Shown here: positions 8,002 to 51,520 of the stretch, piece after piece
Position numbering within the stretch: position 1 is the first letter of the stretch
Layout of the letters: each line of letters opens with the position of its first letter
Assembly: GCA_033762955.1 (NCBI GenBank)
Contig: JANRLC010000048.1
Span: 1 to 64,000, forward strand
Source of the DNA: Verrucomicrobiota bacterium
GTDB lineage: Bacteria; Verrucomicrobiota; Verrucomicrobiia; Opitutales; Oceanipulchritudinaceae
Length of the DNA stretch: 64,000 nt
Direction: 5' to 3'
The notes under the pieces: model-generated
Database searches by the model: none
Told to the model about the DNA's origin: nothing
The model's input: the letters and a program-made list of their open reading frames with translations, nothing else
Position numbers and translations under genes: made by a program

Positions 8002-8082
<81 letters not shown>

Positions 8083-10975: not shown

Positions 10976-11039
10976 CATGCGCTACATAAATCCAGACATC
11001 CTGAAGTCGTGGGAATTGAGATGAATCCTGTTTGCCTTT

Positions 11040-19990: not shown

Positions 19991-20052
19991 ATGATCTGCC
20001 TGATCCGACTGATCCGACCGATCTGTCGTATCCGACCCATCCGACAGATCAT

Positions 20053-20838: not shown

Positions 20839-20872
20839 GTCGCGAGATAGGTCGAGTTTGCAGAGAGTTTGC

Positions 20873-21211: not shown

Positions 21212-21256
21212 GGTTCGATGGTGTTGAGGTTGGTGACGAAAGCACAAGTACTGTGT

Positions 21257-23967: not shown

Positions 23968-23973
23968 ATTTTT

Positions 23974-24080
23974 GCCGAACGATAAAGCTCAGACACCCCG
24001 CTGGGGATTTCCGAACTCAATAGTCTTCTCGTAAGCGCTGGGCGTCATCTGGGTTGTCTGTAGCGTCTTTCTTGTTAGTC
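23974..24080 (-). other. integron attC site
   Basis: Top strand GCCGAACGATAAAGCTCAGACACC ... GGTTGTCTGTAGCG ... GTTAGTC. Confidence 0.55.
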
Positions 24081-24325
24081 TGCGTCATTAGTCACCAAAA
24101 AGTTTGTCTCTTATCTCTTGAATCATCGAACGCACGTCATCACCAGTGCAGCTGCTGTTCGCTAACTGGCTCGAAATTCGGTCCAACTTCACAGGTATGC
24201 TGAGAATCGCGCACTCCAGTCGACGTACTCGCTCGGCTTTCTGCTCCACCAACTGACGAGCTCGAACAAGCTCTCGGCGTTTCTCTCGTTCTGCTTTGCT
24301 CGGAATGGTTACTGTGTTTGGTGTG

Positions 24326-24427
24326 GCCTAGCGTCAAAGATGAGCCACGATGCAACTTGGCGCGTTTCCTGACGCTGCAGGAATCGTGACAGGTCGTGTC
24401 GTTGGCTCTGGTGCCTTGTTGTTAGGC
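24326..24427 (-). other. integron attC site (long, lies inside the 3' end of the ORF 24334-24825)
   Basis: Top strand GCCTAGCGTCAAAGATGAGCCACG ... CGTTGGCTCTGGTGCCTTGTTGTTAGGC. Confidence 0.65.
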
Positions 24428-24825
24428 TGGATTTCTTCGAGCCTCTCCCAGCGCATTTCAAATTCGGGAATCATGTAGCTCTTCGGCTGAAGCCAGAATG
24501 AAACCCGCTCTTCCTTCACTCCGCGATGAGCTCTGGCTCTGACCTCCTCTGGCCTCAAAATGAAAATTCCAGGAGTGGCGTCTAAATTATTCACGATGAT
24601 CCAAAAGTCACCCATAACTTTATCGAGAGAATTTCCAAGCGGCACAGGACTCTTCTTGCTCAGTGCTTTCACTTGGATGCCGATGTAACGAGTGGCCGTT
24701 AGATCGTAGGCAATGATATCAATGCCCTTCGCATTTCGCGCGGTCGGCATGACATTCCAACCACGCTTTGACAACTCGTAGCACACGAAGTAAAGGCCTA
24801 CATTTCCTACGATCTGGGCGTTCAT
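24334..24825 (-). CDS. cassette ORF, Hjc/NucS-like PD-(D/E)xK nuclease-fold protein
   Basis: GNVGLYFVCYELSKRGWNVMPTARNAKGIDIIAYD ... IGIQVKAL fits the G..GE..V...L...G..V......DIIA ... QVK nuclease pattern. The C-terminal roughly 30 aa are translated through the attC. Confidence 0.5.
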   Translation of the reverse strand: MNAQIVGNVGLYFVCYELSKRGWNVMPTARNAKGIDIIAYDLTATRYIGIQVKALSKKSPVPLGNSLDKVMGDFWIIVNNLDATPGIFILRPEEVRARAHRGVKEERVSFWLQPKSYMIPEFEMRWERLEEIQPNNKAPEPTTRPVTIPAASGNAPSCIVAHL

Positions 24826-24831
24826 GATCTT

Positions 24832-24900
24832 GCCTAATGTGGAAGCTGAGGTGCGCTGCGAGCGTCAGCGAGTAGCGTCACCTTCAGCAACTTGTTAGCC
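24832..24900 (-). other. integron attC site
   Basis: Top strand GCCTAATGTGGAAGCTGAGGTGCGC ... CTTGTTAGCC. The stop codon TAA of the upstream cassette gene lies inside the R'' box GGCTAAC. Confidence 0.6.
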
Positions 24901-25389
24901 TAAATAATCAATCTTCAATGATCTCCTAAGCTTTTTCGCCGATTCGAGTGCGGTCCTCAAATTATCATCCATTGTATTCCCAACAAACTTTTCAATTAAT
25001 TCCAGTTGCTCATCTTTTGAATCAAGCACCAATCTAACAAGGGGATCCAACTCTCCTGCAACGGTATCAAATATTACTCCTTCCTTCCCCATCATTATTT
25101 TGTAATATAAATCTTCATTCTCTTGAAAGAGATTGATATCAAATCTCCCCTTGGCCCAATCAGAAACATGGCCTAGAAAACTATCTTGCTTAATATGATT
25201 TTCCAACTTCCCGGACAATCGGTTCACCTCTAAGGTATACTTGATGATGGGGTTTTTTATATTTACTATTTTTGACAGGAATAAAATCAATCCTTCCCAG
25301 TACTGATCATCCTCAGTGTTTATATATATGCAGATGTAAGATGGGCCATCCTTTGATATGATATTAGATTTGAGTATAGCTGTTTTCAT
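24895..25389 (-). CDS. cassette ORF, hypothetical protein (about 36% GC)
   Basis: 164-aa ORF bounded by attC sites on both sides. Confidence 0.5.
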   Translation of the reverse strand: MKTAILKSNIISKDGPSYICIYINTEDDQYWEGLILFLSKIVNIKNPIIKYTLEVNRLSGKLENHIKQDSFLGHVSDWAKGRFDINLFQENEDLYYKIMMGKEGVIFDTVAGELDPLVRLVLDSKDEQLELIEKFVGNTMDDNLRTALESAKKLRRSLKIDYLG

Positions 25390-25399
25390 AAATTGTCTG

Positions 25400-25464
25400 G
25401 CTAACGTAGAAGTGAGCGGCCTGCGCTGCTTTTCGCACAGGTCCGCTCTACTGCCGGGTTAGCC
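25400..25464 (-). other. integron attC site
   Basis: Top strand GGCTAACGTAGAAGTGAGCGGCC ... CTACTGCCGGGTTAGCC. The stop TAA is embedded in the R'' box. Confidence 0.6.
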
Positions 25465-26319
25465 ACGTTTTCGCTCAAGTATTTCATGGACGTCTTTGGC
25501 TAGCTGCCTATATGAGAGCGTTGCCATCTTCCTATCGCATAGTGCGACGACATGGCCCAGATCGTGCTCACCTTCAAACGGAAAGGAATCCGTGACGGCC
25601 GGGATATTTAGCGAGCCGATCCATTTACCTAGAATTCCAACGGAAATGACAATGTTAGATGGACCCAACCCCGCGATTACACACGAGCCCTTAATCAACT
25701 GACAAAAATGGCTCAACAATTCGCTCTCCTCTTTATCTGCACTTTCGGCTTGGGAAAATTCGTCATATCCTCGCAAACCGAAGTGTGCAAAGTCCTCGCG
25801 TTTTGATTCTGAGTTGAAGTTCATTAGTGCGCGCAGCTCGTTATGCTTGACATGAGTACGGAATAGATCGCCGTAGATGAAGTAACCAGCAGACAGCGCA
25901 ACCTTAGCAACGAAGCGTTTGCGGCCGTGAGCTTCAATATTAAATTGCGACGAAATCGTGTTTCCGCCGATTTCATGCGGCTCAAGGTGGCGCTTAGTCA
26001 TCGCATCCCAAATGAGCATGCCCTCTTTGCCACGCAAGGTAACTTGAATGGGCCGCTTTTCGTCGCCCAGATGCGACTTTTTCAATAACACCGTCGGCGG
26101 CGTGTTGCTGTGTCCCCTTGCGTCAAACTCACGACGGCGCATCAGCGTAAGAAAGTCGTTTGCCAACACTCCATCGATTCTTGAACCAACCTTCGCATTG
26201 AAGTCCTTCTCTACGGGAATACAGAACTGGTTTGATCCTCCGAGCGAAAGTGGAATGATGTGCTCGGAGTTCATTGCCTCTACAGGCAATTCAAGGTCTG
26301 TGTAAGGACACCACGGCAT
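25459..26319 (-). CDS. cassette ORF, HNH endonuclease-domain protein
   Basis: NSEHIIPLSLGGSN is an HNH motif near the N-terminus. The 286-aa protein has an uncharacterised C-terminal domain. Confidence 0.6.
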   Translation of the reverse strand: MPWCPYTDLELPVEAMNSEHIIPLSLGGSNQFCIPVEKDFNAKVGSRIDGVLANDFLTLMRRREFDARGHSNTPPTVLLKKSHLGDEKRPIQVTLRGKEGMLIWDAMTKRHLEPHEIGGNTISSQFNIEAHGRKRFVAKVALSAGYFIYGDLFRTHVKHNELRALMNFNSESKREDFAHFGLRGYDEFSQAESADKEESELLSHFCQLIKGSCVIAGLGPSNIVISVGILGKWIGSLNIPAVTDSFPFEGEHDLGHVVALCDRKMATLSYRQLAKDVHEILERKRG

Positions 26320-26321
26320 AG

Positions 26322-26395
26322 CGGCTAGCGTATGAGATCAGTCACGGCCCAGCAAGGCCGTTGGCTGTAGCGACTGGTTGGTCGGTTTGGTTTTC
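26322..26395 (-). other. integron attC site (boxes degenerate)
   Basis: Top strand TAGCGTATGAGATCAGTCACGGCCCAGCAAGGCCGTTGGCTGTAGCGACTGGTTGGTC is nearly identical to the attC at 49597-49657. Confidence 0.55.
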
Positions 26396-26406
26396 ATGGG
26401 GGATTC

Positions 26407-27123
26407 CTATGCGATGCGCTTCCACCGCTTGAACGCCGCTACATCATCGGAGGAAAGGTCAAACCACTCACCCTCACCTCGCTTGCTGGCAAAGCGTCTA
26501 TGCCAATAAGCCTCTACTCCTGCTGGATCATCGGTCTCGATGGTGTGAATGGTTGTCGGCGGGACAGGAATCTTTATCGCGAGCTGCCTCTCGCGACTTC
26601 CGACCGACACAGTCCGTCCAATCTTGTGGTGACGCCCGGATCGCATGAGATAAACAAAACCGGTTTCAACAGACCTCTCCTTGTCTGGAGCTGACGCCTC
26701 CTCCTTCAGCTCAGCCCGACATAGAGACAAAACGTCGTCGTACTCTGGATGACTCTCACAATACCGTACCACGCGACCAAGCAACGCGTCCTTCCCATCG
26801 CGGTAGAACACGGTCTGACTTGGAAACGTCTTATCCGTGCGAGACCGCAAAACAAACTCTCCTTTCACAGGAATACGCCCAAGCTCTCTCGCGAACGCGA
26901 TAAACTTCTCGACCAAAAAGTCTGCCGAATACGCGGCTTGCATTTGATTGCAGCTGAAGCCCGCTTCGACCAACGCATCGCCCCATCTAAGCCAATGACT
27001 GGGAAACCAATCATTGTGCCGAATGCCAGTCTTACGCTCGAACAAGAGTGTCCCGGGGGCTTTGCCGCCGTTCTCTTTCGCGATGCGACGGATTTCTTCG
27101 AGAACTCGTGCTTTTTCGATCAT
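26407..27123 (-). CDS. cassette ORF, T5orf172 (GIY-YIG-like) domain protein
   Basis: C-terminal half GFVYLMRSGRHHKIGRTVSVGSRERQL ... PAGVEAYWHRRFASKRGEGEWFDLS is the T5orf172/MUG113 signature. A GGAGG Shine-Dalgarno lies 7 nt upstream; the gene is translationally coupled to the 27142-27846 gene. Confidence 0.6.
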   Translation of the reverse strand: MIEKARVLEEIRRIAKENGGKAPGTLLFERKTGIRHNDWFPSHWLRWGDALVEAGFSCNQMQAAYSADFLVEKFIAFARELGRIPVKGEFVLRSRTDKTFPSQTVFYRDGKDALLGRVVRYCESHPEYDDVLSLCRAELKEEASAPDKERSVETGFVYLMRSGRHHKIGRTVSVGSRERQLAIKIPVPPTTIHTIETDDPAGVEAYWHRRFASKRGEGEWFDLSSDDVAAFKRWKRIA

Positions 27124-27141
27124 TGGTTAGCCTCCGTTTTC

Positions 27142-27846
27142 TTATTTGGGGTCACGCTTACCTGCTAAAATAGCGATTACATTAATGGCCGTAGTGGTGG
27201 CATCAACACATATTGCTGCACTTCTAAAATCCGCAGTTCGAGAGTGAGTAAGGGCATTCGCGATACGCAAGGATGCTTTGGTATAACGCCTGAGCTCCTC
27301 ATTCGCATCGCCCTTCATCTCAACGGCTATATACGATTCCAGCATTCTGTTTGCGTCCGTAGAACTGGGTTCGGTGCCATCAAGTGGAGGATGATTCGCT
27401 CTGATATATACGGCCTGCGCCAATGAAACTAATCCATCACGGCAAAGAAGTCCTACTGCCTGAAACTGCTCTTCATTCTCTGCCGACGCTAGACGATTCC
27501 TCATCTCGCCAACGGTTCTATCAACTCGCTCCCATCCGGTCAGCTGATATTCCTGCTCTTTTCCGGTCTGAATCAAATTTATTAATGGGGTAAATAGATT
27601 TGAGACAAAGCTTCTCCGGGATTGATAGCTTGGTAAATCACCCGAACTCCATCGGCCATACCAATCCCATAGACTGCCGTATGTAATAGGATTCGTGATT
27701 TTCCGAACCGCTAGAGCTGCTGAAATCTTAGCGTAAGTGCGCTGATACTGCTCATCGACTTCTTGGATTCGTGAGCCACCAGTAGAAACAGAGACCATGA
27801 GATCACGCATTTTATTAAGACCTTCAATCAACTCGGGATTATTCAT
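27142..27846 (-). CDS. first cassette ORF next to attI, hypothetical protein
   Basis: The 234-aa ORF starts about 6 bp from the attI junction. It shares a cassette (no attC between) with the T5orf172 gene. Confidence 0.55.
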   Translation of the reverse strand: MNNPELIEGLNKMRDLMVSVSTGGSRIQEVDEQYQRTYAKISAALAVRKITNPITYGSLWDWYGRWSSGDLPSYQSRRSFVSNLFTPLINLIQTGKEQEYQLTGWERVDRTVGEMRNRLASAENEEQFQAVGLLCRDGLVSLAQAVYIRANHPPLDGTEPSSTDANRMLESYIAVEMKGDANEELRRYTKASLRIANALTHSRTADFRSAAICVDATTTAINVIAILAGKRDPK

Positions 27847-27851
27847 ATTTT

Positions 27852-27990
27852 TGGCTATCAGTTTGATATATGGAAAGTTTTCCGTCCTATAGCAAGCCGT
27901 AGACGGAAACTTTATACATGTTATTGACTATAGAAACGGAATTCATGAAAAATGTGAAGCTTGCAGTCTGATTATCCGTCCTATTAGCTA
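27852..27990. promoter_or_regulatory. attI recombination site region, and probable Pc/Pint promoter region
   Basis: The intI 5' flank abuts the first cassette. It is about 85% identical to 50352-50495; similarity to that second copy stops exactly at the first-cassette boundary (27852 / 50352). Confidence 0.6.
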
Positions 27991-27995
27991 ATGAC

Positions 27996-28997
27996 ATGGA
28001 TAAAGTGGAAAAGAAGGCTGGGTTTCATCCTGATCCGGGGTTGCGGTTGATGGAGCAGGTGCGGGAGGGGTTGCGCTACTATCATTATGCTTACCGGACA
28101 GAGCAGATTTATTGCGAGTGGATTGACCGGTTTGTGAAGTTTTATCGGGATGAGCGGCATCCGCGAGAGATGGGGAGCCTGGAGGTGGAGCGGTTTCTCT
28201 CTCATCTGGCTTCGGTGGAGCAGGTTTCGGCTTCGACGCAGCGACAGGCTTTGAATGCCCTGGAGTTTTTGTATGACAGGGTACTTCTCCAGCCACTAGC
28301 CGGGGAAATTGCTCCCATCCGGGCCAGGCCGGGTCAGCGTCCGCCTGCGGTTTTGACCGTGGCGGAAACGGGCGCGTTGCTGGGGGCAATGAAGGGAACA
28401 CATGGGGTGATGGCGCGGTTGCTTTATGGGGCCGGGTTGCGCTTGATGGAGTGTGTCCGGCTGCGGATTAGGGATGTGGATTTTGGGCAGGGGCTGGTGT
28501 ATGTGCGCGATGGCAAGGGGGGAGGGGAGCGTACGGTGCCGCTGCCGAAGCGGTTGAAGCCGGCCTTGCTGGAGCACCTGCGACGGGTGCGGGCTTTGCA
28601 TGAGAGTGATCTGGCGGAGGGTTTCGGTGCGGTGTGGCTGCCGGAGGCTTTGTCGCGTAAATACCCGCAGGCTGAGCGTGAGCCGGGGTGGCAATATGTG
28701 TTCCCGGCCAAAAAGCGTTCCCTCGATCCGCGCAGTGGTCGGGAACAACGGCATCATGTCATGGAATCGGGGGTGCAAAAGGCGGTTAAGGTGGCGGTGG
28801 CCAGGGCGGGGATCACGAAAAAGGTGGGGTGCCACACTTTGCGTCATAGTTTCGCCACCCATCTGCTTGAAAGTGGGGTCAATATTCGTGTATTGCAGGA
28901 GTTGATGGGGCACAGGAATGTGAAAACTACCGAAATGTATACCCGTGTTGTGCTCGGTAATAAGCAGGGTATCACCAGCCCACTGGACAGGCTGTGA
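27996..28997 (+). CDS. intI: integron integrase (tyrosine recombinase IntI)
   Basis: Alignable by eye to IntI1: LRYYHYAYRTEQIYCEWIDRFVKFY; the IntI-specific insertion VWLPEALSRKYPQAEREPGWQYVFPAKKRSLDPRSGREQRHH; and catalytic HTLRHSFATHLL ... GH ... TEMYTRV (R-H-R-Y). Confidence 0.9.
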   Translation: MDKVEKKAGFHPDPGLRLMEQVREGLRYYHYAYRTEQIYCEWIDRFVKFYRDERHPREMGSLEVERFLSHLASVEQVSASTQRQALNALEFLYDRVLLQPLAGEIAPIRARPGQRPPAVLTVAETGALLGAMKGTHGVMARLLYGAGLRLMECVRLRIRDVDFGQGLVYVRDGKGGGERTVPLPKRLKPALLEHLRRVRALHESDLAEGFGAVWLPEALSRKYPQAEREPGWQYVFPAKKRSLDPRSGREQRHHVMESGVQKAVKVAVARAGITKKVGCHTLRHSFATHLLESGVNIRVLQELMGHRNVKTTEMYTRVVLGNKQGITSPLDRL

Positions 28998-32088: not shown

Positions 32089-32323
32089 GCGCTGAGGTAC
32101 AAAGGTACAAAGGCACAGAGGCACAAAGTTGGCAGAAGGTAACCAGAGTGTCTCGCTCTGGTCTGAATGGCTTTGGCGAGGATGCTCCTTGCGTGTGCGG
32201 ACCGACGGTCCGCATTGTTCAGTGACATCAGGATGACCGAATGAAACGTCGCGCCAACGACGCTGCATACACAAACAGGGTTCGTCTCCTTTCCCGCGAC
32301 TCTTGGAAGTCAGAAGTGGGCAA

Positions 32324-39619: not shown

Positions 39620-39639
39620 CGATCTGTCGGATCCTCTAG

Positions 39640-39810
39640 ATCACGTGAGTACCCTTGCAGTCGGGGTATTTGGTGCAGCACCATCTGGTCCACGGTACGG
39701 GAGCGGGCATCAAGGAACTTCTCGCAGAACCAGACGGTTGCATCGTAGATAAGCGTCGATGTCTGAAAGCTGCACGTATCGCGGTAGCCACCGCTGGGTC
39801 GGAGTTACTT
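39640..39810 (-). pseudogene. remnant of the four-helix-bundle/zinc-ribbon gene (internal deletion of about 600 bp)
   Basis: The 5' and 3' ends match 20690-20838 and 20053-20100, but the middle is missing. Confidence 0.6.
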
Positions 39811-39846
39811 CATGGAACGAACTGGGTATGTTAGCAGAGCGCTCCC

Positions 39847-40185
39847 TTAAACTTCAGCCTTCACGTGCTCTCGGTAAACGCGCAGCAGCTCAGTCACCAA
39901 AATCCCCTCTATCTTCATCCCTGCGTAGCCTGCATCGGCAATGGTAAGGTCGCCCAGGCAGGCGTTGCGGATGCTGGCTCCGGTCAATGCGACATTGAAG
40001 AACGTAACGCCGCGCAGATTGACATCATCAAAGCGGGTCGCGCTCAGGTTGACGTTATGGAACTTCGACTGGGACAGATTCACATTCTCAAACTCTGCGG
40101 CACCCAGGTTGACATCCGTAAACGCCGAGCCGCCCAGATCAGCGTGCTCCGCCTTGTACTTTCCACATTTAAGTTCCGTGCTCAT
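39847..40185 (-). CDS. pentapeptide-repeat protein (paralog of 20873-21211)
   Basis: About 90% aa identity to the copy-1 gene. Confidence 0.75.
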   Translation of the reverse strand: MSTELKCGKYKAEHADLGGSAFTDVNLGAAEFENVNLSQSKFHNVNLSATRFDDVNLRGVTFFNVALTGASIRNACLGDLTIADAGYAGMKIEGILVTELLRVYREHVKAEV

Positions 40186-40344
40186 GGTTTGATGGGAATG
40201 AGGTTGGTGACGATTGCACATCACTGTGTTTATCCGGAAATAATAATGTGTGTTAAGTCGCTTGCCGTAAACGCAAAAGCGGGCGGGACTTTGTGGGTCC
40301 CGCCCGCGAAGGCTTGTTACTGCGTTGGTTGCCGGGTTGTAGGA

Positions 40345-42665: not shown

Positions 42666-43124
42666 CGGGTTTATGCCAAGACAAGGCTGATTGGACACGC
42701 TGAAAGGACAGACAAGAATGTCTATCCCACATTGCCCAATACCTCAATCCGTGGGATCGAGGCCATCCTGACTGCTCTGTGCGGGGTACACCAAGCGAAG
42801 CGACTTGCCTTTCCCTGCCTTTGCCCTTTCTGCCATCTTCCTGTTGCCTTCTGCCTTTGTCTTTTACCAACAAAAAGCGGACAGAACCACATGGTGATCC
42901 TGTCCGCTGGAATACTTATAGCTACTGCCTTGATTGACTAGGCGGTTTTACTCATGGGTTCGGCTTCGGTCCGGATTACATTGAGGTTATTACTACCGCG
43001 TTCGCGGTGGGTTTGGAGATATCCGAACTCAGTGGTCTTCTCGAATACGCTGGGCGTCATCGGGGTTGTCTGTAGCGCCAGGTTCGGCTTTCATTTTCTG
43101 TTTTCGACATCGCCTCGATTAACG

Positions 43125-44684
43125 TTATGGATGTCGTGCAACCTTAGCACGGAGCATGTCCATGTGCATCTCAGCGCGCTTCTTCTGCCCTTCCTCTGTA
43201 ATGAGTGGATAGACCGCCTCAAGCCGCGCCAAAGCCTGTGAAGCAACTTCACCTTCAAGCTCCTCGGTTGACGTTGCTTCCAATGCTGTCATTACAAGCC
43301 ACGGCTCAGCTGAAGTGTAGAGCGGAGCTAAATCAGCGAACTTCGCCCCGATCATCCATAGCGTTTGGTGCTGAGTGTAAGCTTCCTGACTGTTCTTGGG
43401 TGGATGACTTGGTATGGCCTCTACTAGCCGCGGAATGCCTGGCCTGCCAAGCTGGCGAAGTTCGGATAGGACTTTCATACTTCGAGAATCATCCGACATC
43501 CCGGCCAAAGCGAACTCAGTCAACTGAGTAGCAATGTCATCAAGCTTCGCTTTTACTCTCTCCATGGCCAAACCCTGATCAGTCCTTTCTTCCAGCGGAA
43601 CCTTCGCCCAATTGCAGAACTGGGTAATTGCGTAGCTCTCTGAAGGAGGATTCTGTTTTCGAGCCAAATCCTTGGCGATTTGCCCGCGTACCGAACGGCA
43701 GGCGAGATCCAGTTCAGAGAGTATGCTTGAAATCCGGCTTAGCGCCTCGACGACGCCCGTTCGGTCCTCCGGTTTGCTGTGGTAAATCTCCAGAAGCTCG
43801 GGAATGAACTCAATCGCCTCTACGTTATAGCACAGTGATGAATAATCCAGCTCCGGCGGACGGTCTTTACGAAAGGTGTGGAATGCCTGCCAAATTCGCG
43901 TTTGTCTGGGCCCGGGATCGAGGGCTCCGTGGTCTGGCAAGATGAGTTCAATGCTGATCTTGGGCCTGTTTGGAATGACCTCGGAATATCCCTCGTTCAA
44001 TACCCGGCTCCCGATTGACCGCTGCCAACTGTGATTAAGCACCAGCTTCTCCGGTTGATCTTTCAATTCCCGAAAACTCAGATTCCAGAACGTTGGCTTG
44101 CGCTGCAAATCCCCGGGCGGATCAGACATCGGCTGAATTTCCAAGGCGACACTCTGGCTCGCACGCAACCGAAATCGGAATTTGCCTTGGGAATCACTGC
44201 TTGATGATCGCTTCTGCATACTCAGACCATTCTCGTGGAAGTACTCATTAATTCTGACTCCAGAGAGAATATTGCCCCTGATGTCGCGCAATTGAAGTTC
44301 GACTCGTGTTGAATTCACAAAGTCTATCAGCAAGGCGACCCCCAGCCATAGGATTACCGCGGGGATTACTGTTGAGAGTTGCCGCGCTTCTTTTCTCGGT
44401 CGGCAAAAGAATGTAGCTATCAGACCAAGGAGACAAATCGCGAGAGCCGGCAGCAGAATAATGGCCATCATTCCAGCAAACCCTGCGTCCGGTCCGCTCA
44501 TGCTCCCGATGTGGCTCAGAATCCTGAGGATCTTGAATGCCGCGTAAGCAAAGACTCCGGTGGTTGGAAACCATATAAAAACGACCCACCGACGGCTACG
44601 GAAAGCGAATGAAAGACTGAGCCCACAGATCAGGGCGAAGAGCCCCACCAATGCGGATGTGAGGGATAGCTGGGAGAAAATCAT
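43125..44684 (-). CDS. cassette ORF, large multi-TM membrane protein (about 519 aa), hypothetical
   Basis: Start chosen at MIFSQLS, 35 bp downstream of the R-prime box. Four N-terminal TM helices are followed by a soluble domain. Confidence 0.5.
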   Translation of the reverse strand: MIFSQLSLTSALVGLFALICGLSLSFAFRSRRWVVFIWFPTTGVFAYAAFKILRILSHIGSMSGPDAGFAGMMAIILLPALAICLLGLIATFFCRPRKEARQLSTVIPAVILWLGVALLIDFVNSTRVELQLRDIRGNILSGVRINEYFHENGLSMQKRSSSSDSQGKFRFRLRASQSVALEIQPMSDPPGDLQRKPTFWNLSFRELKDQPEKLVLNHSWQRSIGSRVLNEGYSEVIPNRPKISIELILPDHGALDPGPRQTRIWQAFHTFRKDRPPELDYSSLCYNVEAIEFIPELLEIYHSKPEDRTGVVEALSRISSILSELDLACRSVRGQIAKDLARKQNPPSESYAITQFCNWAKVPLEERTDQGLAMERVKAKLDDIATQLTEFALAGMSDDSRSMKVLSELRQLGRPGIPRLVEAIPSHPPKNSQEAYTQHQTLWMIGAKFADLAPLYTSAEPWLVMTALEATSTEELEGEVASQALARLEAVYPLITEEGQKKRAEMHMDMLRAKVARHP

Positions 44685-44718
44685 GACGGCTAGATGTTGG
44701 GGAAGGTGATTATGCGCG

Positions 44719-44809
44719 TGCCGAACGTCTAGCTCATCCACGGCGGGGATGGAAGCCCGAATTCAAACTGGAGCGTTACCCGCCGTTGGATGGAGCGTCT
44801 TGTTCGCCT
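44719..44809 (-). other. integron attC site
   Basis: Top strand GCCGAACGTCTAGCTCATCCACGG ... CGTTGGATGGAGCGTCTTGTTCGCC. Confidence 0.6.
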
Positions 44810-44826
44810 TTGGTTTATGAGTTTGT

Positions 44827-45405
44827 CTATGCTGGATGAGTAAGTCGTGTGATGATCTCTTCAACGTCACGGACACCAGCAATAGCTAAGAAACCGTGGT
44901 CAGTGGATTGTCTGCCACCATCACCATCACCCGCCCAAGTCCGCTCAAAAATGAGGTCTCCAGTCCCATCTGGCTTCTGAACCCGTCGGATGTCTTTGAG
45001 TCGGTCGGGATCAAATGAACGAATTGTCATGGAACCAAATACACCACCAGCTAGGACAATAGCTCGCTGATCCGTGATGACATAGGCAGTTCTTCGAGCC
45101 ATTCGTCGCATCCAGTATGGACTGGAAAGCATACCAAATCCGATGAGGACGAATGGCAGGCCGAACAGTGGGAAAATGCCAAAGCCCTGACTAAAGTCGG
45201 GCATCTTGAACCCGCTGGCTCCAGCAATCCAGAAAAGAGCAAACGCTGTCCAAGGTATGCCAAACAGCACAAGTCCGATACTACGCCGGGCAAAACAACC
45301 AGGAATGGGCTGTCCAGTCCATGTGACACGTTCTCCATTTCGCAGTTCAGCATCAATAAGACGAGAAACATCGTGCGGTAAATTATTTGTGTGGTGGAAT
45401 TGCAT
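44827..45405 (-). CDS. cassette ORF, membrane protein (2 TM plus a bPH-like domain), hypothetical
   Basis: 192-aa ORF starting 16 bp after the R-prime box. Confidence 0.5.
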   Translation of the reverse strand: MQFHHTNNLPHDVSRLIDAELRNGERVTWTGQPIPGCFARRSIGLVLFGIPWTAFALFWIAGASGFKMPDFSQGFGIFPLFGLPFVLIGFGMLSSPYWMRRMARRTAYVITDQRAIVLAGGVFGSMTIRSFDPDRLKDIRRVQKPDGTGDLIFERTWAGDGDGGRQSTDHGFLAIAGVRDVEEIITRLTHPA

Positions 45406-45420
45406 AGGGTTTCATTTTTT

Positions 45421-45487
45421 GCCGAACGGTAAAGATGAGCCACGAGGCATGACAGCGGTGGACGTTGGCTCTGGTGCCTGGTTCGGC
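45421..45487 (-). other. integron attC site (best-preserved exemplar)
   Basis: Top strand GCCGAACGGTAAAGATGAGCCACGAGGCATGACAGCGGTGGACGTTGGCTCTGGTGCCTGGTTCGGC. R''/R' are GCCGAAC/GTTCGGC. L''/L' are GAGCCA(A)CG / CGTGGCTC with one extrahelical base. Confidence 0.75.
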
Positions 45488-45488
45488 C

Positions 45489-45851
45489 TCATGTGATAAC
45501 CGAAGATACCGCGACGCGACAATTCTCGGCCAAACCGTAAACCTTGTCGGCTTCGTAGTCGAATAGCTCGTAGTGCACCGATTCCCAGCCTCTCGAGCTA
45601 ATCTTATCTACGTCGAAACCGATGAGCTGGTGAATGGATGCAATGCGGAAATCGCGAACATTGCCGAAAGTGACATCGATCTGCCCCTTCTTTCCTTTGA
45701 GCACAAAGGAGACAATCTTTTCGAATCGCTCGCGATCTTCCTCGTAATATGTGTCGATAGACAGGCACTTAAGATCCGTAAAATCACCGAATGCGCAGTC
45801 GCCATACTGTGCTTTGACATCGGCGTAACCTGGAAGATCAGCGAGCGACAT
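45489..45851 (-). CDS. cassette ORF, hypothetical protein (120 aa)
   Basis: The stop codon directly abuts the R'' box. Confidence 0.5.
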   Translation of the reverse strand: MSLADLPGYADVKAQYGDCAFGDFTDLKCLSIDTYYEEDRERFEKIVSFVLKGKKGQIDVTFGNVRDFRIASIHQLIGFDVDKISSRGWESVHYELFDYEADKVYGLAENCRVAVSSVIT

Positions 45852-45859
45852 TGTATTTT

Positions 45860-45958
45860 CCGAACGTTATAGATCAGCCACGACTATGGCTGGCGCACAG
45901 CCTGCGCAAGCAGGATGCGTGACTGACATAGTCGTTGTGCTGTAGCGCCTGATTAGGC
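45860..45958 (-). other. integron attC site
   Basis: Top strand CCGAACGTTATAGATCAGCCACG ... GTCGTTGTGCTGTAGCGCCTGATTAGGC. Confidence 0.65.
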
Positions 45959-45964
45959 TCATGT

Positions 45965-46663
45965 TTATTGTATTTCTTTGCAGATAAAACTCCGTACGAC
46001 CGGTTGCGCTAGAATCATAGCTAATTCATCGTGCAAAACTTTTTCCTTGTTTCCGCCTGGAGGTGATGGATGGCTAAACTTAATAACTAAACGCTTGCGG
46101 TGAATGAATATTCGGTCTGCTGGACACGTGAACTCAGTGCTGGGATGGTATGCTGCGTGATAAGACCAAAAGGTGTTAGCGCACAAGATCACGTCGGGAC
46201 AAATAAGATCAATTTGCTCAGTGAGAAACTCTTTATCTCTGATTGCCGCTTGCTGTATCAGCTTCTGTGAGGAGGTAGTCTCTCCTAGCTCCTTGGAAAC
46301 ATTTACATAGGCGATATCTGACAACTGTATGGTTCCGGCATACCTTGAGTCAAATGCATCATACTCAGCTTGAGAACTTGATGCGTTACCGGTGTAAACC
46401 GATTTAATCAGATCCCTCCATCGAACAATATTGCGCCATATAATTGGGAATTTCCCGTTTCGCGCAATTATTTCTATTGGGCTCCCAGATATGTTATACC
46501 AATTCGCTTTTTTGTGTGATTCCTTCATCAGGAACAAAATCCTAGGCTTTGCGGTCATCCACGCTTCAGGGCTTAGGATGCCGTCCCGCACAAAGGGATT
46601 ATACCCCCGAGTGTGAGCCCACCTGTCTTGTAGTTCGGTTAACTTTTCGATTTCGATGTCCAT
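45965..46663 (-). CDS. cassette ORF, hypothetical protein (232 aa)
   Basis: Bounded by attC sites on both sides. Confidence 0.5.
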   Translation of the reverse strand: MDIEIEKLTELQDRWAHTRGYNPFVRDGILSPEAWMTAKPRILFLMKESHKKANWYNISGSPIEIIARNGKFPIIWRNIVRWRDLIKSVYTGNASSSQAEYDAFDSRYAGTIQLSDIAYVNVSKELGETTSSQKLIQQAAIRDKEFLTEQIDLICPDVILCANTFWSYHAAYHPSTEFTCPADRIFIHRKRLVIKFSHPSPPGGNKEKVLHDELAMILAQPVVRSFICKEIQ

Positions 46664-46669
46664 GTTATT

Positions 46670-46770
46670 TCTACCTTACGTCATAGATGAGCCACGAGCG
46701 TGCTCGACGCCAAAGCCTGCCCCGCAGCCGACGTGCCAAGCACGCTCGTTGGCTCTAGCGAATGATCAGG
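46670..46770 (-). other. integron attC site (R-prime box degenerate)
   Basis: Top strand CCTTACGTCATAGATGAGCCACGAGCGTGCTCG ... CAAGCACGCTCGTTGGCTCTAGCGAATGATCAGGC. Confidence 0.55.
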
Positions 46771-46771
46771 C

Positions 46772-47455
46772 TCATTTTTCATTCATCCAATTTAGTGTAT
46801 TGTTTATAGCCAGACACCATGCATCGTAAGCCGGACGCGACGGATGAGGTATGGAGTATATTAAGCATCCATCGACCACTGCGCTATTCCGGAATCCAAT
46901 CGGACCTTGGGGGCTCAATAACTGGTTCACCGCTGCTAAACCTGCATGACCTCCAACAAACACGACATCAGGTCTCAGTGCCATAATCTCAGCCCAGATG
47001 TATCTTCCGGTGTCAGAATGGCCGACTGCAGATATCGCTGCGTAATCCTGCGGTTTCACTGAATTGGACTGTGCTCGGATATTGTAATATATCGTTCTGT
47101 CTAAAGTGTCTTCAATCATATCATCGTTGGCAAACGCTGCGCTAAGCATCTCTCGCGACGCCGCTATCTTCTTCTGGAAACACGCTAGTGCTACATGGAG
47201 AACAGCAAAAGTGTATCGAGTCGTCTTAGTGCCCGTGTCGCCGGCATCATAAATCCAATCAATTAGGTCGTCTCGTGTAACATCGAACACGCCCATTTTC
47301 TCATAGCCATACGGTTCCATATTAACGGCGACAACTTTGAATGGCTCATTCCAGTAGCGGTCCGTTGTCGGTCCGTAGAACATGTGATGTGTCGCTCCGG
47401 AATCAAGAAGGTGCTTCCGTAAGCTAGCGCGGGCTTCGTGGAATTTATGGATCAT
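46772..47455 (-). CDS. cassette ORF, hypothetical protein (about 227 aa)
   Basis: Start moved to the internal MIHKFHEAR so that the R-prime box GTTCGGC lies 19 bp upstream, as in the other cassettes. Confidence 0.45.
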   Translation of the reverse strand: MIHKFHEARASLRKHLLDSGATHHMFYGPTTDRYWNEPFKVVAVNMEPYGYEKMGVFDVTRDDLIDWIYDAGDTGTKTTRYTFAVLHVALACFQKKIAASREMLSAAFANDDMIEDTLDRTIYYNIRAQSNSVKPQDYAAISAVGHSDTGRYIWAEIMALRPDVVFVGGHAGLAAVNQLLSPQGPIGFRNSAVVDGCLIYSIPHPSRPAYDAWCLAINNTLNWMNEK

Positions 47456-47474
47456 GAATTGATTGATTAATTCT

Positions 47475-47639
47475 GCCGAACGCATAGGTCAACGACGGGA
47501 GCCAGCCTCCGATGACGTTCGATGTGTCTCTGAGCGAATCGGCTGGCTCACGTTCACTGGACCGTCTGGTTCGCCTTCTTCTTCATTTTCGGTCCCATGA
47601 CGCGAAACAGGCTTTGTCTTCAATCCAGCCTTGTTCGGA
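47475..47639 (-). other. integron attC site, unusually long or compound
   Basis: Top strand GCCGAACGCATAGGTCAACGACGGGAGCCAGCC ... GGCTGGCTCACG ... GGTTCGCC ... TTGTTCGGA. Confidence 0.45.
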
Positions 47640-47642
47640 TTT

Positions 47643-47897
47643 TCAGAAGAAGACAATCGGTCCACCGCTAGCGGTGCATGACTCTGCCAGATAAACGGAG
47701 ATCACATCAGGTTCATCCTGTGAAATGCCCACAACCACAAGATTGTAAGCCTTGGCCGCAGACTGGACAATCAGCGCGACTTCTCCTTGGGACGCTGCCA
47801 TTTCACCAGCGGCATTCTTACAGTTAAAATCGCCTTGCTCAGACACGCAGCCTGCCACAAATACAAGCGCGAAGGAAATGATGCGATGAAGGGCCAT
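47643..47897 (-). CDS. cassette ORF, small lipoprotein (84 aa)
   Basis: MALHRIISFALVFVAGC gives the lipobox. It starts 6 bp after the R-prime box. Confidence 0.45.
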   Translation of the reverse strand: MALHRIISFALVFVAGCVSEQGDFNCKNAAGEMAASQGEVALIVQSAAKAYNLVVVGISQDEPDVISVYLAESCTASGGPIVFF

Positions 47898-47902
47898 TCT
47901 AT

Positions 47903-47990
47903 CGGCGAACGTAAAAGTGCGCTACGGATGAAACTAAGCCTAAGACGTTTGCTCCCCCGACTTGCTCTACAATGCGGGGCAACTTAGAAT
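47903..47990 (-). other. integron attC site (degenerate)
   Basis: Top strand CGGCGAACGTAAAAGTGCGCTACGG ... the far box is weak (AACTTAGAA). Confidence 0.4.
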
Positions 47991-48625
47991 CTAGATATCA
48001 AACCTAAAAAATAGGAAATAATAGCAGTAATAATAACTAGGATAATGTTATCCTTATTACGATACCAGAAACTTTTATACTTATGTTTTCTGTTTAAGAA
48101 GATTTTTGATGAACCAATAAATGAGTGTCCAAGAAATAAGATATAAAATATGACCAGTGATAGCAGTAAACCAGCTGGATACTTAATGAAATTATTCAGG
48201 GGAAGAAATGGGGTAAGATATACTATCAGAAAAATAGACATACCACATATCATTCCGAGAATACCATTCCACCAATAGCCAGTAGGATGCCATGAGTACC
48301 ATTTAACATGTGAGCTTAATAAATCCTTTACGAAGGGCGCATCTTTTTCGTTTTGATAGGGACGGCTAATTGTAACACCTCTTGGCTCAATATCTATGCG
48401 AATTTCATCAAAGGAGTTCTTGTACCTGAAAATAAGATTAAGGGAAGAAATGTGATCCCTTGATACGTGCTCCAATAATTCTTCTAATGACTCGTACTCC
48501 GTATTGTCATACATCACACTCAATTCTGAGTCATCAGGAAGTTGTCGGATTAGATTATCTAAATCATCAAGGTATAATCTAATTGGAGGTATCCTAATAG
48601 GGGCAGTGCTTCTGATTATTTTCAT
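47984..48625 (-). CDS. cassette ORF, membrane protein (about 214 aa), hypothetical, about 33% GC
   Basis: Start moved to MKIIRSTAPIRIPP, 6 bp downstream of the R-prime box. The longer ORF-track start lies inside the attC. Confidence 0.45.
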   Translation of the reverse strand: MKIIRSTAPIRIPPIRLYLDDLDNLIRQLPDDSELSVMYDNTEYESLEELLEHVSRDHISSLNLIFRYKNSFDEIRIDIEPRGVTISRPYQNEKDAPFVKDLLSSHVKWYSWHPTGYWWNGILGMICGMSIFLIVYLTPFLPLNNFIKYPAGLLLSLVIFYILFLGHSFIGSSKIFLNRKHKYKSFWYRNKDNIILVIITAIISYFLGLISRF

Positions 48626-48630
48626 TTTAT

Positions 48631-48750
48631 TAGAACGTACAAGATTCAAGATGAGCCAAGTGTATGCTTGGCGCGAATCGTGTCCTACAAAAGGGAAGAA
48701 AAGCACGATTCGTGACAATCATACGCATTGGTTCCATCGCCATGTTAGCC
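48631..48750 (-). other. integron attC site (long)
   Basis: Top strand TAGAACGTACAAGATTCAAGATGAGCCAAG ... CATGTTAGCC directly followed by the stop TAA of the upstream gene. Confidence 0.5.
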
Positions 48751-49587
48751 TTAGTTTCGTTTTATTTTATGCACTCCATCAGGTGCTTGAATCTGATTAT
48801 CTGTCTGAACTTCGATCAGTTGTAAATCTGTAACTACGCTTTGGTTGTATCCAAATTTTAGTTCAACATATTTATGATTTCCGTCGGAATGTTCATCTAG
48901 GCCCCATGCTCTCTTAATGACCAATCTGGTTTCTCTTTCATATGAATATTTGTGTGGCAGGTATAGCCCGCAAATGGAGGATGCGTCCTCCCAAAAAAAC
49001 TCTTTATTTAAACTATTTTTGGTCCAGTCCTGGACTTCTTTAAAGAAATCAGCCCATTTATCTATACCGTTTCCGTAGGTAATGCGCCGAAGGCATCCCG
49101 ACTGAACTGTCAATCTGAATCTAAACCTAAACCCATTACCTTTAGCGAATACAGTCCAAAAATTATGTTCTTCATTTGGTGTGAGATCAGTGTCTGTCAT
49201 CGATGTGTAGTAAAATCCATCGGCTATAGATTGAACATATCGAGGCCTCTGGGAGGCCTCATCTATTCCGAGAGGATACTTGTAGTCAAATTTCTCAAGA
49301 AAAGCCCGTATCTCATCCTCTTGGATTCTTTTTTCAACTGAATATAGCCTTAATCGACTGGTGGTTAAAATACTTTCACCGCTCACCTTATTCGTGTAAT
49401 GGTAGAACTCGCTGTCGTGTATCGGAGGGCAAATTTGATTGGTTAATTGCTTGGATATGCGCCCACCTTTGATCGAGTCGATTACCACGCGCTCAAGAAA
49501 GTTGAAGTCGTCTTTGGTAGCTTGAATTCCGAATTCGTGTTTGGTGAAAATATCATTCAACCCCTGGATGTATTTATCGTATTCCAT
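48751..49587 (-). CDS. cassette ORF, hypothetical protein (278 aa, low GC)
   Basis: Bounded by attC sites on both sides. Confidence 0.5.
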   Translation of the reverse strand: MEYDKYIQGLNDIFTKHEFGIQATKDDFNFLERVVIDSIKGGRISKQLTNQICPPIHDSEFYHYTNKVSGESILTTSRLRLYSVEKRIQEDEIRAFLEKFDYKYPLGIDEASQRPRYVQSIADGFYYTSMTDTDLTPNEEHNFWTVFAKGNGFRFRFRLTVQSGCLRRITYGNGIDKWADFFKEVQDWTKNSLNKEFFWEDASSICGLYLPHKYSYERETRLVIKRAWGLDEHSDGNHKYVELKFGYNQSVVTDLQLIEVQTDNQIQAPDGVHKIKRN

Positions 49588-49596
49588 TGTATTTCT

Positions 49597-49657
49597 GGCA
49601 AACGTTAAAGATCAGCCACGGCCCAGTAGGGCCGTTGGCTGTAGCGCCTGGTTAGCC
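49597..49657 (-). other. integron attC site
   Basis: Top strand GGCAAACGTTAAAGATCAGCCACGGCCCAGTAGGGCCGTTGGCTGTAGCGCCTGGTTAGCC. Confidence 0.7.
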
Positions 49658-49750
49658 TCATTTTCATTGGCTGTCAAAATGTGCGAAGACCTCGATAAGC
49701 GAGGAAGCAAAGGGCACCCAGCAGCGCCAACATGACAATTACCGCGAGCT

Positions 49751-49990
49751 TCACAGGCGCGCTTTCACTCTCTGATCATCGCGAGCGCGGGGAAAACTCT
49801 TCACAACTTCGAAGGCAATCCATTCGTGCGGCTCGCCCTCAACATGCGCGCCGTCGATAGGAATCAAGCCTTCGCTTTTCGACATCGCACCGGACTTAAT
49901 TTGCTCCGCAAGCGCGATGATGTCTTTCTGCTCCCCCGCGACTGTGACGCCGGGAGATGGTCCGCCTTCTACTTTCACGAGGAGCTTCAT
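49751..49990 (-). CDS. cassette ORF, small hypothetical protein (about 79 aa)
   Basis: Overlaps the upstream ORF by 29 nt in the ORF track; the start is moved to MKLLVKVEGG. Confidence 0.4.
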   Translation of the reverse strand: MKLLVKVEGGPSPGVTVAGEQKDIIALAEQIKSGAMSKSEGLIPIDGAHVEGEPHEWIAFEVVKSFPRARDDQRVKARL

Positions 49991-50012
49991 TCTTTGGCTC
50001 TCTAGTGCCTGG

Positions 50013-50345
50013 TTAGCCGGTCTTGAAGCGATCCAAAACATGTTTTTGAATGGCAGATAAAATCAGCATCGGCATAGATCCGACAACAGTCTGCACGAAA
50101 AGCATCTTATTGAAGCTGAGACGCTGCGCAGTGACGTCGTCCATAAACCAAAGAGTCACCAACAGCGAGACAATCGCCGAAATAGCTAATCTCGCGAGAA
50201 ACCATCCATATCGTCCGATTTGCTCTTCCTTGGAGTACTTAACGACGGGCACTGCTTTCTTACGTCGGGCTAGAGGAAGCATCAGCGGCAAGAAGCCGCC
50301 AAGTAATCCAAATAAGATCGCACTTATAAAGAGTTTCGATTCCAT
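50013..50345 (-). CDS. first cassette ORF next to the attI remnant; small membrane protein (110 aa)
   Basis: Three predicted TM helices; starts 7 bp from the attI-cassette junction. Confidence 0.45.
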   Translation of the reverse strand: MESKLFISAILFGLLGGFLPLMLPLARRKKAVPVVKYSKEEQIGRYGWFLARLAISAIVSLLVTLWFMDDVTAQRLSFNKMLFVQTVVGSMPMLILSAIQKHVLDRFKTG

Positions 50346-50351
50346 AGTAAA

Positions 50352-50495
50352 TTGGCTAAGGGTTTGATATATGGAAAATATCCGTCCTATTGCAAGCAGT
50401 AGATGGAATATTTTCCATGGTATTGGCTATAGAAATGAAATTCTGGAAATGCGAAGCGTGAAGTTTGTTTTCCGTCCTATTAGCTAATGACAGGA
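50352..50495. other. attI-like site copy with deleted intI
   Basis: ...TATGGAAAATATCCGTCCTATTGCAAG ... TTTTCCGTCCTATTAGCTAATGACAGG matches 27852-27995 including the intI start context (GCTAATGACATGG in copy 1). Downstream, intI is replaced by AGATTTCAGATTCC repeats. Confidence 0.7.
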
Positions 50496-51520
50496 TTACA
50501 GATTTCAGATTCCAAATGGCGGAAGGCAGATGGCAGGAGCCGAACCAGTCTCCCTGTTACTCCCATCGCGAAACACGGGGCGTTGTGAATGGAAAATGGA
50601 GAATAGAGAGTGGAGAATGGGGATGGGGGACGAATGGAGAATGGGGATGGCGGAAAGCAGATGGCAGAAGGCAGATTTAAGATTCCAAATTCCAGATTCT
50701 GAACGCTGAAGGCTGATAGCTTCTCCTGTTACTCCCGGGGCGTGTTGTTGGGCTCTGAGCCTGCTTCTCCGCCAACAAACTGCGGCATGTAGGACTTATG
50801 CAAGCTGCCGCCCGTGGTCGGGAGAGCGGTTCCGTGGACAACTTCCCGATTGCTGAAGGTGGATAAATGCTGTGTTTCCCGAAGACACGGGAGGATGAGA
50901 CTGCACTCCAGATTGGGGAACCAACCTTGGCAAGCGGGAAATAGCGTAGTGTAGGCACAAAGTTACAAAGGCACAGAGTCGGAAAGGCAGGAGGAAGAAG
51001 GCAGCAGGCGGATTTAAGATTACAGATTTCAGATTCCAAATGGCGGAAGGCAGATGGCAGGAGGCAGATTCCAGATTACAGATTCCAAATTACAGATGGC
51101 AGAATGCCGGAAGGCAGCAGATTCCAGATTACAGATAGCAGAAGTCGTGGCGGGGGTTGTAGGAGTGGCGGCAATCTTGGTACGAGCGGTGGCAACGGTG
51201 GTACGAGTGGCGGAAGCGGTTGCGGGAGTGGCGGCAACGGTTCCGCGCGTGGTGGCAACGGTGGTACGGGTGACGGCAACGGTGGTACGGGTGACGGCAA
51301 CGGTGGTACGGGTGACGGCAACGTCGGTACGAGTGACGGCAACGTCGGTACGAGTGGCGGCAACGGTGGTACGAGTGGCGGAAGCGGTTGCGAACGAATG
51401 GAAAATGGTGAATGGAGAATGGAGAATGGGCGGGAGGGGGGCGGAATGGAGAATGGGCAGATTCCAGATTTCAGATTCCAGATTTAAGATTCTGAACGCT
51501 GATAGCTTCCTTCTTCCCAT
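50495..51520. repeat. composite repeat module paralogous to 29000-29960 (simple repeats, 210-bp unit at 50790-51000, 21-nt tandem array about 51150-51400)
   Basis: See 29000-29960. Confidence 0.75.

Follow-up and report, generated by a model that had tools for sequence, protein, structure and literature searches.

A cassette array without an integrase but with an attI relic, probably derived from a duplicated integron in a Verrucomicrobiota contig

The DNA analysed here, referred to below as the window, comprises positions 1 to 64,000 of contig JANRLC010000048.1 (assembly GCA_033762955.1) from a Verrucomicrobiota bacterium (Opitutales; Oceanipulchritudinaceae) and carries two arrays of integron gene cassettes. 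The array of locus 1 adjoins an intact integron integrase gene (intI), whereas that of locus 2 lacks intI and begins at a diverged copy of the attachment site attI, called attI' below. Clusters of attC sites lacking an integron integrase are known as CALINs (Cury et al. 2016, PMC4889954). Locus 2 belongs to this already known category, as at least two attC sites are clustered less than 4 kb apart and no intI lies within the clustering distance: 14 kb separate the gene from the distal end of array 2, and 21 kb separate it from attI'. The features around the two attI copies are as follows (a vertical bar marks the crossover point).

50360..50493, minus strand: attI' relic, homologue of the attI/Pint intergenic region 27860-27995 of locus 1
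50371..50418: imperfect palindrome of an integron-specific motif, ATGGAAAATATCCGTCCTA..TAGATGGAATATTTTCCAT, with the direct motif TCCGTCCTAT at 50381-50390
50468..50490: second direct copy of the motif, within TTTCCGTCCTATTAGCTAATGACA
50491..50581: junction of the intI deletion and filler, in place of the 1002-bp intI open reading frame (ORF)
27860..27995, minus strand: attI of the complete integron (partner locus), crossover G|ATAGCC at 27859|27858
27996..28997, plus strand: intact intI (333 aa) of the partner locus, TIGR02249

The product of intI at locus 1 scores 416 bits against TIGR02249 (cut-off 265) and is also annotated by NCBI as an integron integrase. Its residues 17-333 align with few gaps to VchIntIA (2A3V, the Vibrio cholerae IntI structure), and it has the integron-specific insertion GVWLP..KYP..W.Y.FP and the catalytic residues R, K, HxxR, H and Y. 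A tblastn search of IntI against the six frames of the window found no other intI or intI fragment, the next best match having an E-value of 0.18 over 19 aa. The first-pass annotation of this DNA had proposed that intI was deleted at locus 2, and the same search found none between 50350 and 51500. Neither intI nor a fragment of it lies between 50360 and dnaE at 51619, and an intI adjoining and divergent from an array is present only at locus 1.

The proposed deletion is strengthened by the sequence beyond it: homology between the loci restarts at 29005 and 50582, respectively, 8 bp past the intI stop codon, and continues for ~0.9 kb. Between the end of attI' (50490) and position 50582 there are ~85-90 bp of filler, the junction reading GACAGGATTACAG. 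The filler starts with GGATTACAG, which shows microhomology to codons 1-3 of intI (GGATAAAG) and to the 7-mer block at 29080, and its first 46 nt (50494-50539) are 100% identical to 51018-51063. The simple repeats reported earlier in place of intI were seen again beyond attI' as period-7 and period-21 repeats. The 1002-bp intI ORF appears to have been lost in a clean deletion, at a place rich in slippage-prone repeats.

The relationship of the two attI copies is clear from MAFFT alignment and self-blastn of the window. Positions 27851-28001 and 50352-50496 are 81.5% identical over 151 columns (E-value 4.8e-30), and in a global alignment of 27860-27995 with 50361-50489 the identity is 85.3% when gaps are left out and 80.9% when they are counted, which bears out the figure of about 85% given in the first-pass annotation for these intI 5' flanks. 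The context of the start codon is also as described there (GCTAATGACATGGATAAAG in copy 1 and GCTAATGACAGGATTACAG in copy 2), and the similarity, said to stop at the boundary of the first cassette, was found to end at 27851 and 50352. The last 22 nt of attI' (50469-50490) are identical to copy 1, where this run ends 1 nt before the intI ATG.

The register of the crossover was set by aligning the regions upstream of intI from three related integrons (L025-L027, from Pontiella sulfatireligans, Verrucomicrobia bacterium S94 and an ENA contig) with both copies. It places the crossover at 27859|27858 in copy 1 and at 50360|50359 in copy 2. The seven bases common to both copies past this point (TAGCCAA) represent the usual 5' end of a cassette. 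On the cassette strand, the junction is ...AAACTG|ATAGCC in copy 1 and ...AAACCC|TTAGCC in copy 2. The three related integrons point to an ancestral core ...ACTG|TT..., compared with ...ACCC|TT... in copy 2, that is, TG has changed to CC on the attI side and the G of the crossover triplet is replaced by C (C|TT). At the 5' end of cassette 1, TTAGCC is fully complementary to the R'' box GGCTAAC of the cassette's own attC, as expected of a true attI x attC product.

A layout common to these attI sites could be recognised on the cassette strand: (A/C)(C/A)TG|TT at the junction with the first cassette, a spacer, TTTCCA (the reverse complement of TGGAAA) and then copies of a short motif. The spacer between the crossover and TGGAAA is 11-12 nt in Pontiella and the ENA contig and ~23 nt in S94. 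The motif differs from integron to integron: the attI of locus 1 contains two direct and one inverted copies of TTTCCGTCCTAT, the ENA contig two direct and one inverted copies of TTTCCACC(C)TAT, and Pontiella four direct copies of TTTCCAYATATGACC. Motif arrays between the crossover and intI are located at 5740-6000 of L026 and 5860-6000 of L027. The motif array and the 11-12 nt spacing may be a usable signature for the prediction of attI in this IntI clade, and the TTTCC-N4-TAT motif is a candidate IntI-binding site or could equally be the operator of a regulator. The attI1 site of class 1 integrons consists of a simple site and the IntI1-binding repeats DR1 and DR2. The sites described here resemble attI1 in layout, attI1 having a G|TT crossover at the first cassette and short repeated motifs between the crossover and the start of intI, and differ from it in the lack of sequence similarity and in both junctions being non-canonical (G|AT and C|TT).

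Upstream of intI, copy 1 carries a Pint-like TTGACT-18-AAAAAT on the plus strand (27924-27953); its equivalent in copy 2 is TTGGCT..GGAAAT, which gave no match in the promoter scan. No sigma-70-like Pc was detected on the cassette strand of either attI copy, in a scan that does not cover the promoter rules of this phylum. A search for LexA-type boxes with E. coli, Gram-positive and Verrucomicrobia-type motifs returned only matches with two mismatches, which are not convincing.

The arrays themselves were delimited with a covariance model of attC built from the eight sites of array 2 only, with which the whole window was searched with filters off. On the minus strand, the sites consist of R'' (GCCGAAC/GGCTAAC), CAGGCGCTA, L'' (CAGCCAACG), a variable loop, L' (CGTGGCT), ATCTTTAAC and R' (GTTCGGC). 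Array 2 has eight sites between 43019 and 49661, all on the minus strand, scoring 42-85 bits, with a largest gap of ~1.7 kb. The same model recovered five minus-strand sites of array 1 outside its training set (24.7-42.9 bits, E-values from 5e-4 to 1e-8) and seven sites in the cassette array of Verrucomicrobia bacterium S94, and found no further attC with an E-value below 1 in the 128 kb searched. At gathering thresholds, Rfam recognised no attC or other family in the window, only three tRNA genes (3857-3930, 4876-4956 and 8006-8079).

The folded structure of these sites is supported by the 13-site alignment, in which 82.3% of cells pair, against 21-40% in slid controls. Compensatory changes on both sides occur in 8 of the 15 pairs, and the covariation of 0.266, compared with 0.134 in shuffles, was reached by none of 500 shuffles. 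Identity of the attC arms is 58% between the arrays and 56% and 62% within them, and since the former is about the same as the latter, the sites constitute one attC family. The sites are 61-121 nt long, and in most of them L'' has a bulged A (AGCCA-A-CG against CGTGGCT), an extrahelical base of the kind that governs strand choice in attC sites. The R' triplet is GTT in six of the seven complete sites of array 2 and GTA in one, the terminal site being truncated, while array 1 has GCT, GTT, ATT, GCT and GTT. Thus, the first triplet base of the 12 complete sites is G in 11 and A in one. The complete integron is itself non-canonical, with G|AT at attI (27859|27858) and with the R' boxes at 26329, 24838 and 24332 reading GCT, ATT and GCT, and the array beside the integrase is more eroded than the integrase-less array 2.

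The cassettes of array 2, numbered from attI', and array 1 are listed below.

49603..50359, minus strand: cassette 1, ORFs 50345-50013 (110 aa) and 50041-49751 (96 aa); attC 49594-49661, 67.3 bits
48636..49602, minus strand: cassette 2, ORF 49587-48751 (278 aa); attC 48627-48754, 66.5 bits
47493..48635, minus strand: cassette 3, ORFs 48625-47984 (213 aa, membrane protein) and 47897-47643 (84 aa, lipoprotein-like); attC 47484-47579, 54.2 bits
46679..47492, minus strand: cassette 4, ORF 47485-46772 (237 aa); attC 46670-46775, 76.2 bits, R' triplet GTA
45865..46678, minus strand: cassette 5, ORF 46663-45965 (232 aa); attC 45856-45962, 85.5 bits
45427..45864, minus strand: cassette 6, ORF 45851-45489 (120 aa); attC 45418-45491, 67.9 bits
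44726..45426, minus strand: cassette 7, ORF 45405-44827 (192 aa); attC 44717-44812, 75.4 bits
43019..44725, minus strand: cassette 8, ORF ~44687-43125 (~520 aa); truncated terminal attC 43019-43092
23971..27859, minus strand: array 1, attC 26320-26387, 25396-25468, 24829-24904, 24323-24431 and 23971-24084

Seven of the eight attC sites named in the first-pass annotation were recovered by the model, and the single family and orientation claimed for them was borne out and extends to array 1. The eighth, at 47903, scores only 0.9 bits: an R'-like GTTCGCC and an L'-like 3' half remain, the R'' box is absent, and the site is at best a decayed attC relic, located in the gap between the two ORFs of cassette 3 (47898-47983). 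An additional site, overlooked earlier, is the truncated terminal attC at 43019-43092 (42.5 bits), which keeps R'' and L'', has lost L' and R', and is 87.5% identical to the 5' half of the array 1 attC at 23971-24084. The number of cassettes, given as nine to ten, is therefore corrected to eight supported by the model, or nine if the relic is counted.

All ten ORFs of array 2 are intact, and their products have no matches in Pfam, PADLOC or NCBIfam, save one sub-threshold PuhB-like match. Among the cassette products of array 1 (26407-27123 and 25459-26319), one is a T5orf172/MUG113 (GIY-YIG-type) protein and another matches HNH_5 weakly. Past the last attC of array 1 supported by the model, overlapping ORFs of 56 aa and 112 aa without a family match occupy 23462-23967, and beyond this pair there is an R''-like AGCCGAAC which was not scored by the covariance model. 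Except for the terminal relic, no cassette is common to both arrays.

Self-comparison of the window reveals that the colinear paralogy of the two loci reaches far past attI. Besides the attI copies, it includes the following segments.

39622..40257, minus strand: flank A', matching 20039-20100 and 20705-21283 at 87%, with a pentapeptide-repeat gene at 39847-40224
42872-42987 against 22643-22796: distal end segment, with the same minus-strand intrinsic terminator hairpin in both
42876..42987, minus strand: distal end of the locus 2 array, paralogous to 22646-22796, with an R''-like relic, GAAGCCGAACCC, in 42925-42987 and the terminator hairpin from 42908 to 42876
43014-43077 against 24002-24065: terminal attC (5' half), array 1 having the complete site and array 2 a truncated one
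50361-50489 against 27860-27995: attI segment
50582..51490 against 29005-29900: region downstream of intI, with GAATGGA and GATTYCA 7-mer blocks

All paralogous segments are 84-94% identical, and this similar identity across colinear segments fits a single duplication. Flank A' lacks ~600 bp equivalent to 20100-20705, joining 39622-39683 to 39680-40257; the missing part corresponds to the body of a 261-aa gene, the product of which combines a Top1-type zinc ribbon with a 23S-rRNA-IVP-like domain, and a remnant of this gene is still present in the flank. This second deletion supports the view of locus 2 as a decaying copy.

It is thus likely that locus 2 is a diverged duplicate of the whole locus 1 integron which later lost intI, leaving a CALIN with an attI relic, and that attI' is a poor insertion site. 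Locus 1 (~20.0-29.9 kb) would be the source integron and locus 2 (~39.6-51.5 kb) its paralogue, the duplicated unit having comprised everything from the far flank, terminator and terminal attC through the array, attI and intI to the repeat-rich sequence downstream. One copy would have been placed between the gene of a 595-aa protein (orf595) and dnaE. This copy would then have lost the entire intI ORF in a ~1 kb deletion, for which illegitimate or slipped recombination within the microsatellite-like repeats is the probable cause, with ~85 bp of repeat filler left behind, and would also have lost the ~600 bp of the flanking gene. The presumed remnant is a CALIN of eight ORFan minus-strand cassettes between the attI relic and a truncated attC with an intrinsic terminator. 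As the arrays share no cassettes apart from the terminal relic, at least one of them must have turned over fully, or both must have grown independently, after the duplication; this may have preceded or followed the loss of intI.

The first-pass annotation had suggested that the surviving attI could still be serviced in trans by the intact IntI. One half of this suggestion is plausible: since the attC sites form one family and six of the seven complete sites of array 2 keep G|TT, IntI of locus 1 could act in trans on them and excise cassettes by attC x attC recombination. The other half, efficient insertion at attI', is not, given the C|TT crossover. With IntI1, the frequency of attI x attC recombination falls 10^3-10^4-fold when just one of the partners is altered at the first base of the triplet, while the second triplet position is tolerant, the T2 to A2 change even raising the frequency (Frumerie et al. 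2010, PMC2811028). On this class 1 precedent, attI', with its G1 mutated on the attI side, is probably a relic that serves poorly for insertion: with C1 at attI' and G1 or A1 in the 12 complete attC sites, no efficient recombination is expected between them. By the same precedent of a tolerant second position, the attI of locus 1 (G|AT) should work. Array 2 might then be mainly a reservoir of cassettes, which would be excised and re-inserted at the attI of locus 1.

An alternative is that attI' still works and that a single IntI serves both it and the attI of locus 1 (a bipartite integron), all cassettes of array 2, or the proximal ones, having been inserted after the loss of intI. Several features agree with such an active satellite platform: both direct motif copies (TCCGTCCTAT) and a 16-nt block beside the crossover (TTTCCATATATCAAAC) are fully conserved in copy 2, the attC sites of array 2 are well preserved, with their predominant GTT, its ORFs are all intact, and the pairing of TTAGCC in cassette 1 with its own R'' is that of a bona fide attI x attC product. 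However, the crossover base is C instead of G and the preceding base has changed as well (ACTG to ACCC), at the cost seen in class 1; a matching C1 occurs in none of the 13 attC sites of the window, and the inverted motif arm of copy 2 has decayed, with two substitutions relative to copy 1. The perfect 22-nt run is not unusual either, because the longest run expected for 136 nt at 85% identity is ~19 nt by estimate, and the 22-nt and 16-nt blocks, being no longer than chance, are no proof of selection. This alternative is considered unlikely. It is a little less likely still that C|TT reflects retargeting instead of decay, which would make locus 2 an integrase-less platform for C1-type cassettes, or one still taking ordinary cassettes, and the whole a bipartite integron in either case; that triplet retargeting of this kind is possible was demonstrated by Frumerie et al. 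(PMC2811028).

The two loci might also have arisen by independent acquisitions of related integron-bearing elements, the second of which came without intI or lost it later. The paralogy spans the flanking genes (segment A) and the downstream repeats, so that a discrete unit of ~10-12 kb is present at both places, and the loci are separated by housekeeping genes. Nevertheless, terminal inverted repeats, target-site duplications and transposition genes were looked for at the ends of the unit and none were found, the divergence is alike across all segments, and the period-7 and period-21 repeats of the unit resemble other intergenic repeats of the genome, for instance that at 158-228. Two separate arrivals are therefore improbable.

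Even less probable is an assembly artefact, that is, a chimeric join of two strain or species variants of one integron locus, with and without intI. The contig is metagenome-assembled and both loci are flanked by repeat-rich sequence, which agrees with such a join, but the unique neighbours differ (suhB-like and GH42 genes at locus 1, orf595 and dnaE at locus 2), ~9.6 kb of single-copy housekeeping genes (lpxA, pdxA, infC) lie between the loci, the 6-16% divergence of the paralogous segments is too large for collapse or bridging by an assembler, and the composition is uniform outside the arrays. Finally, a split of array 2 from array 1 by rearrangement, or insertion of cassettes at a secondary (attG-type) site (routes ii and iv of Cury et al. 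2016), is a common explanation of CALINs in IntI-encoding genomes but has a negligible probability here, as neither event would yield an attI homologue, a post-intI region and a distal terminator with terminal attC belonging to the array itself.

Several points weigh against the duplication and decay of a complete integron as proposed above. The window comes from the contig of a metagenome-assembled genome and is known at the assembly level only, and recombination activity of either locus is a prediction from sequence. With no Pc detected, expression of either array is hypothetical. The effect attributed to C|TT is extrapolated from IntI1 and attI1 to an integrase with family-level similarity only, and the whole system may be inactive, several array 1 junctions being non-canonical. 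Furthermore, searches of contigs, metagenomes and proteins found no related strain or contig.

Among 5.8 billion proteins searched with IntI, nothing exceeded 67% identity besides the window's own protein, the nearest integrases (from Pontiella, Kiritimatiellales and Verrucomicrobia S94) being 62-67% identical. A scan of genome contigs with IntI gave relatives at 48-55% identity and one partial match (L019) at 66%. A metagenome scan with a 20-mer conserved in both attI copies returned no matches. The three nearest DnaE relatives are 67-69% identical, and their dnaE neighbourhoods contain no integron and are not syntenic, thus they cannot show the ancestral state.

The integrons of Pontiella sulfatireligans, Verrucomicrobia bacterium S94 and the ENA contig resemble that of locus 1 in IntI sequence (64-66% identity) and in the divergent arrangement of intI and cassettes. 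Unlike the window, each of them shows one complete integron, and neither a duplicated platform nor an integrase-less attI was found within the 6 kb flanks examined.

The loss of intI ranks among the four origins proposed for CALINs (PMC4889954). About half of CALINs are found in replicons encoding IntI, and mobilisation in trans has already been speculated; intI pseudogenes occur near only 5% of CALINs and the other 95% show no nearby trace of the gene (PMC4889954). Locus 2 is similar to CALINs in its clustered attC sites, the absence of a nearby intI, the presence of IntI on the same replicon and its ORFan cassettes. It differs from most of them in keeping the attI region and post-intI sequence, with an intact paralogue 22 kb away; in CALINs generally, attI is not normally assessable. 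In the chromosomal integrons of Xanthomonas, intI was inactivated or lost and fixed arrays remain, according to Gillings et al. (2005), as cited in a 2025 Xanthomonas study (bioRxiv 10.1101/2025.06.18.660453), which agrees with Cury et al. on CALINs. The likeness lies in a sedentary chromosomal integron with integrase decay and in the coexistence of CALINs at other loci with the main integron; the difference is that in Xanthomonas the ancestral locus decays, by frameshifts, truncations and loss, whereas here it would be the duplicated copy that decays while the original keeps an intact intI.

Locus 2 does not overturn current views of integrons. What appears new is that the origin of a CALIN, usually a matter of guesswork, would be directly legible as a duplication and a later, clean removal of intI that spared the attI footprint; such a clean loss would leave no trace of intI and yet a footprint of attI. 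Another point of interest is that the prediction of attI is otherwise difficult outside classes 1-5, and the paralogue pair together with the three relatives delimits the probable functional parts of an uncharacterised attI, namely the crossover, the ~11 nt spacer and the TTTCC-N4-TAT motifs. The locus may also be used as a simple natural test of the control of insertion by the first base of the crossover triplet.

The genes between the loci are single-copy housekeeping genes: GH42, GNAT, lpxA, pdxA, a Fe-S assembly gene, infC and an amidase gene. Beyond locus 2, dnaE occupies 51619-55275. A single dnaB-dnaE island containing both loci was considered and rejected, as the 495-aa ORF is not DnaB and these housekeeping genes lie between the loci. 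The arrays have a GC content of 36-53% and the flanks of 57-63%.

The paralogous sequence past intI includes a non-repetitive element of 212 nt, at 29263-29473 in locus 1 and, ahead of dnaE, at 50793-51004 in locus 2. Its copies are 94% identical, compared with 84-91% for the other paralogous segments. Possible identities of the element are a small RNA, a regulatory element and a gene-conversion tract. It belongs to no Rfam family in E-value mode, the sole weak match, a JUMPstart/ops-like GGCGGCAGCTTG on the minus strand, reaching 15.5 bits where the cut-off is 35, and alifold was uninformative, two sequences being too few for covariation. A metagenome scan with a 20-mer of the element gave two chance matches inside unrelated ORFs.

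Microsatellite-like blocks are found in intergenic regions at 29000-29900, 50494-51500, 158-228 and 32087-32136, with periods of 7 (GATTYCA, GAATGGA, GGCAGGA), 8 (AGGYACAA) and 21 (GGTGGTACGAGTGGCGGCAAC, 11 copies at 51155-51388), and both strands carry long spurious ORFs created by them. Next to the array 2 terminator on its outer side, at 42174-42667, is a tandem array of ~81-99-nt units (2-4 copies per TRF row, 90-94% matches), each with a GC-rich hairpin (AGGAGCGCGG...CCGCGCTCCT); it has no counterpart at locus 1. Inverted dispersed repeats of ~200 nt also occur in the window (7443-7648 with 11129-11333, 79%; 10993-11176 with 22433-22628, 76%), and one of their arms ends 15 bp from the array 1 terminator.

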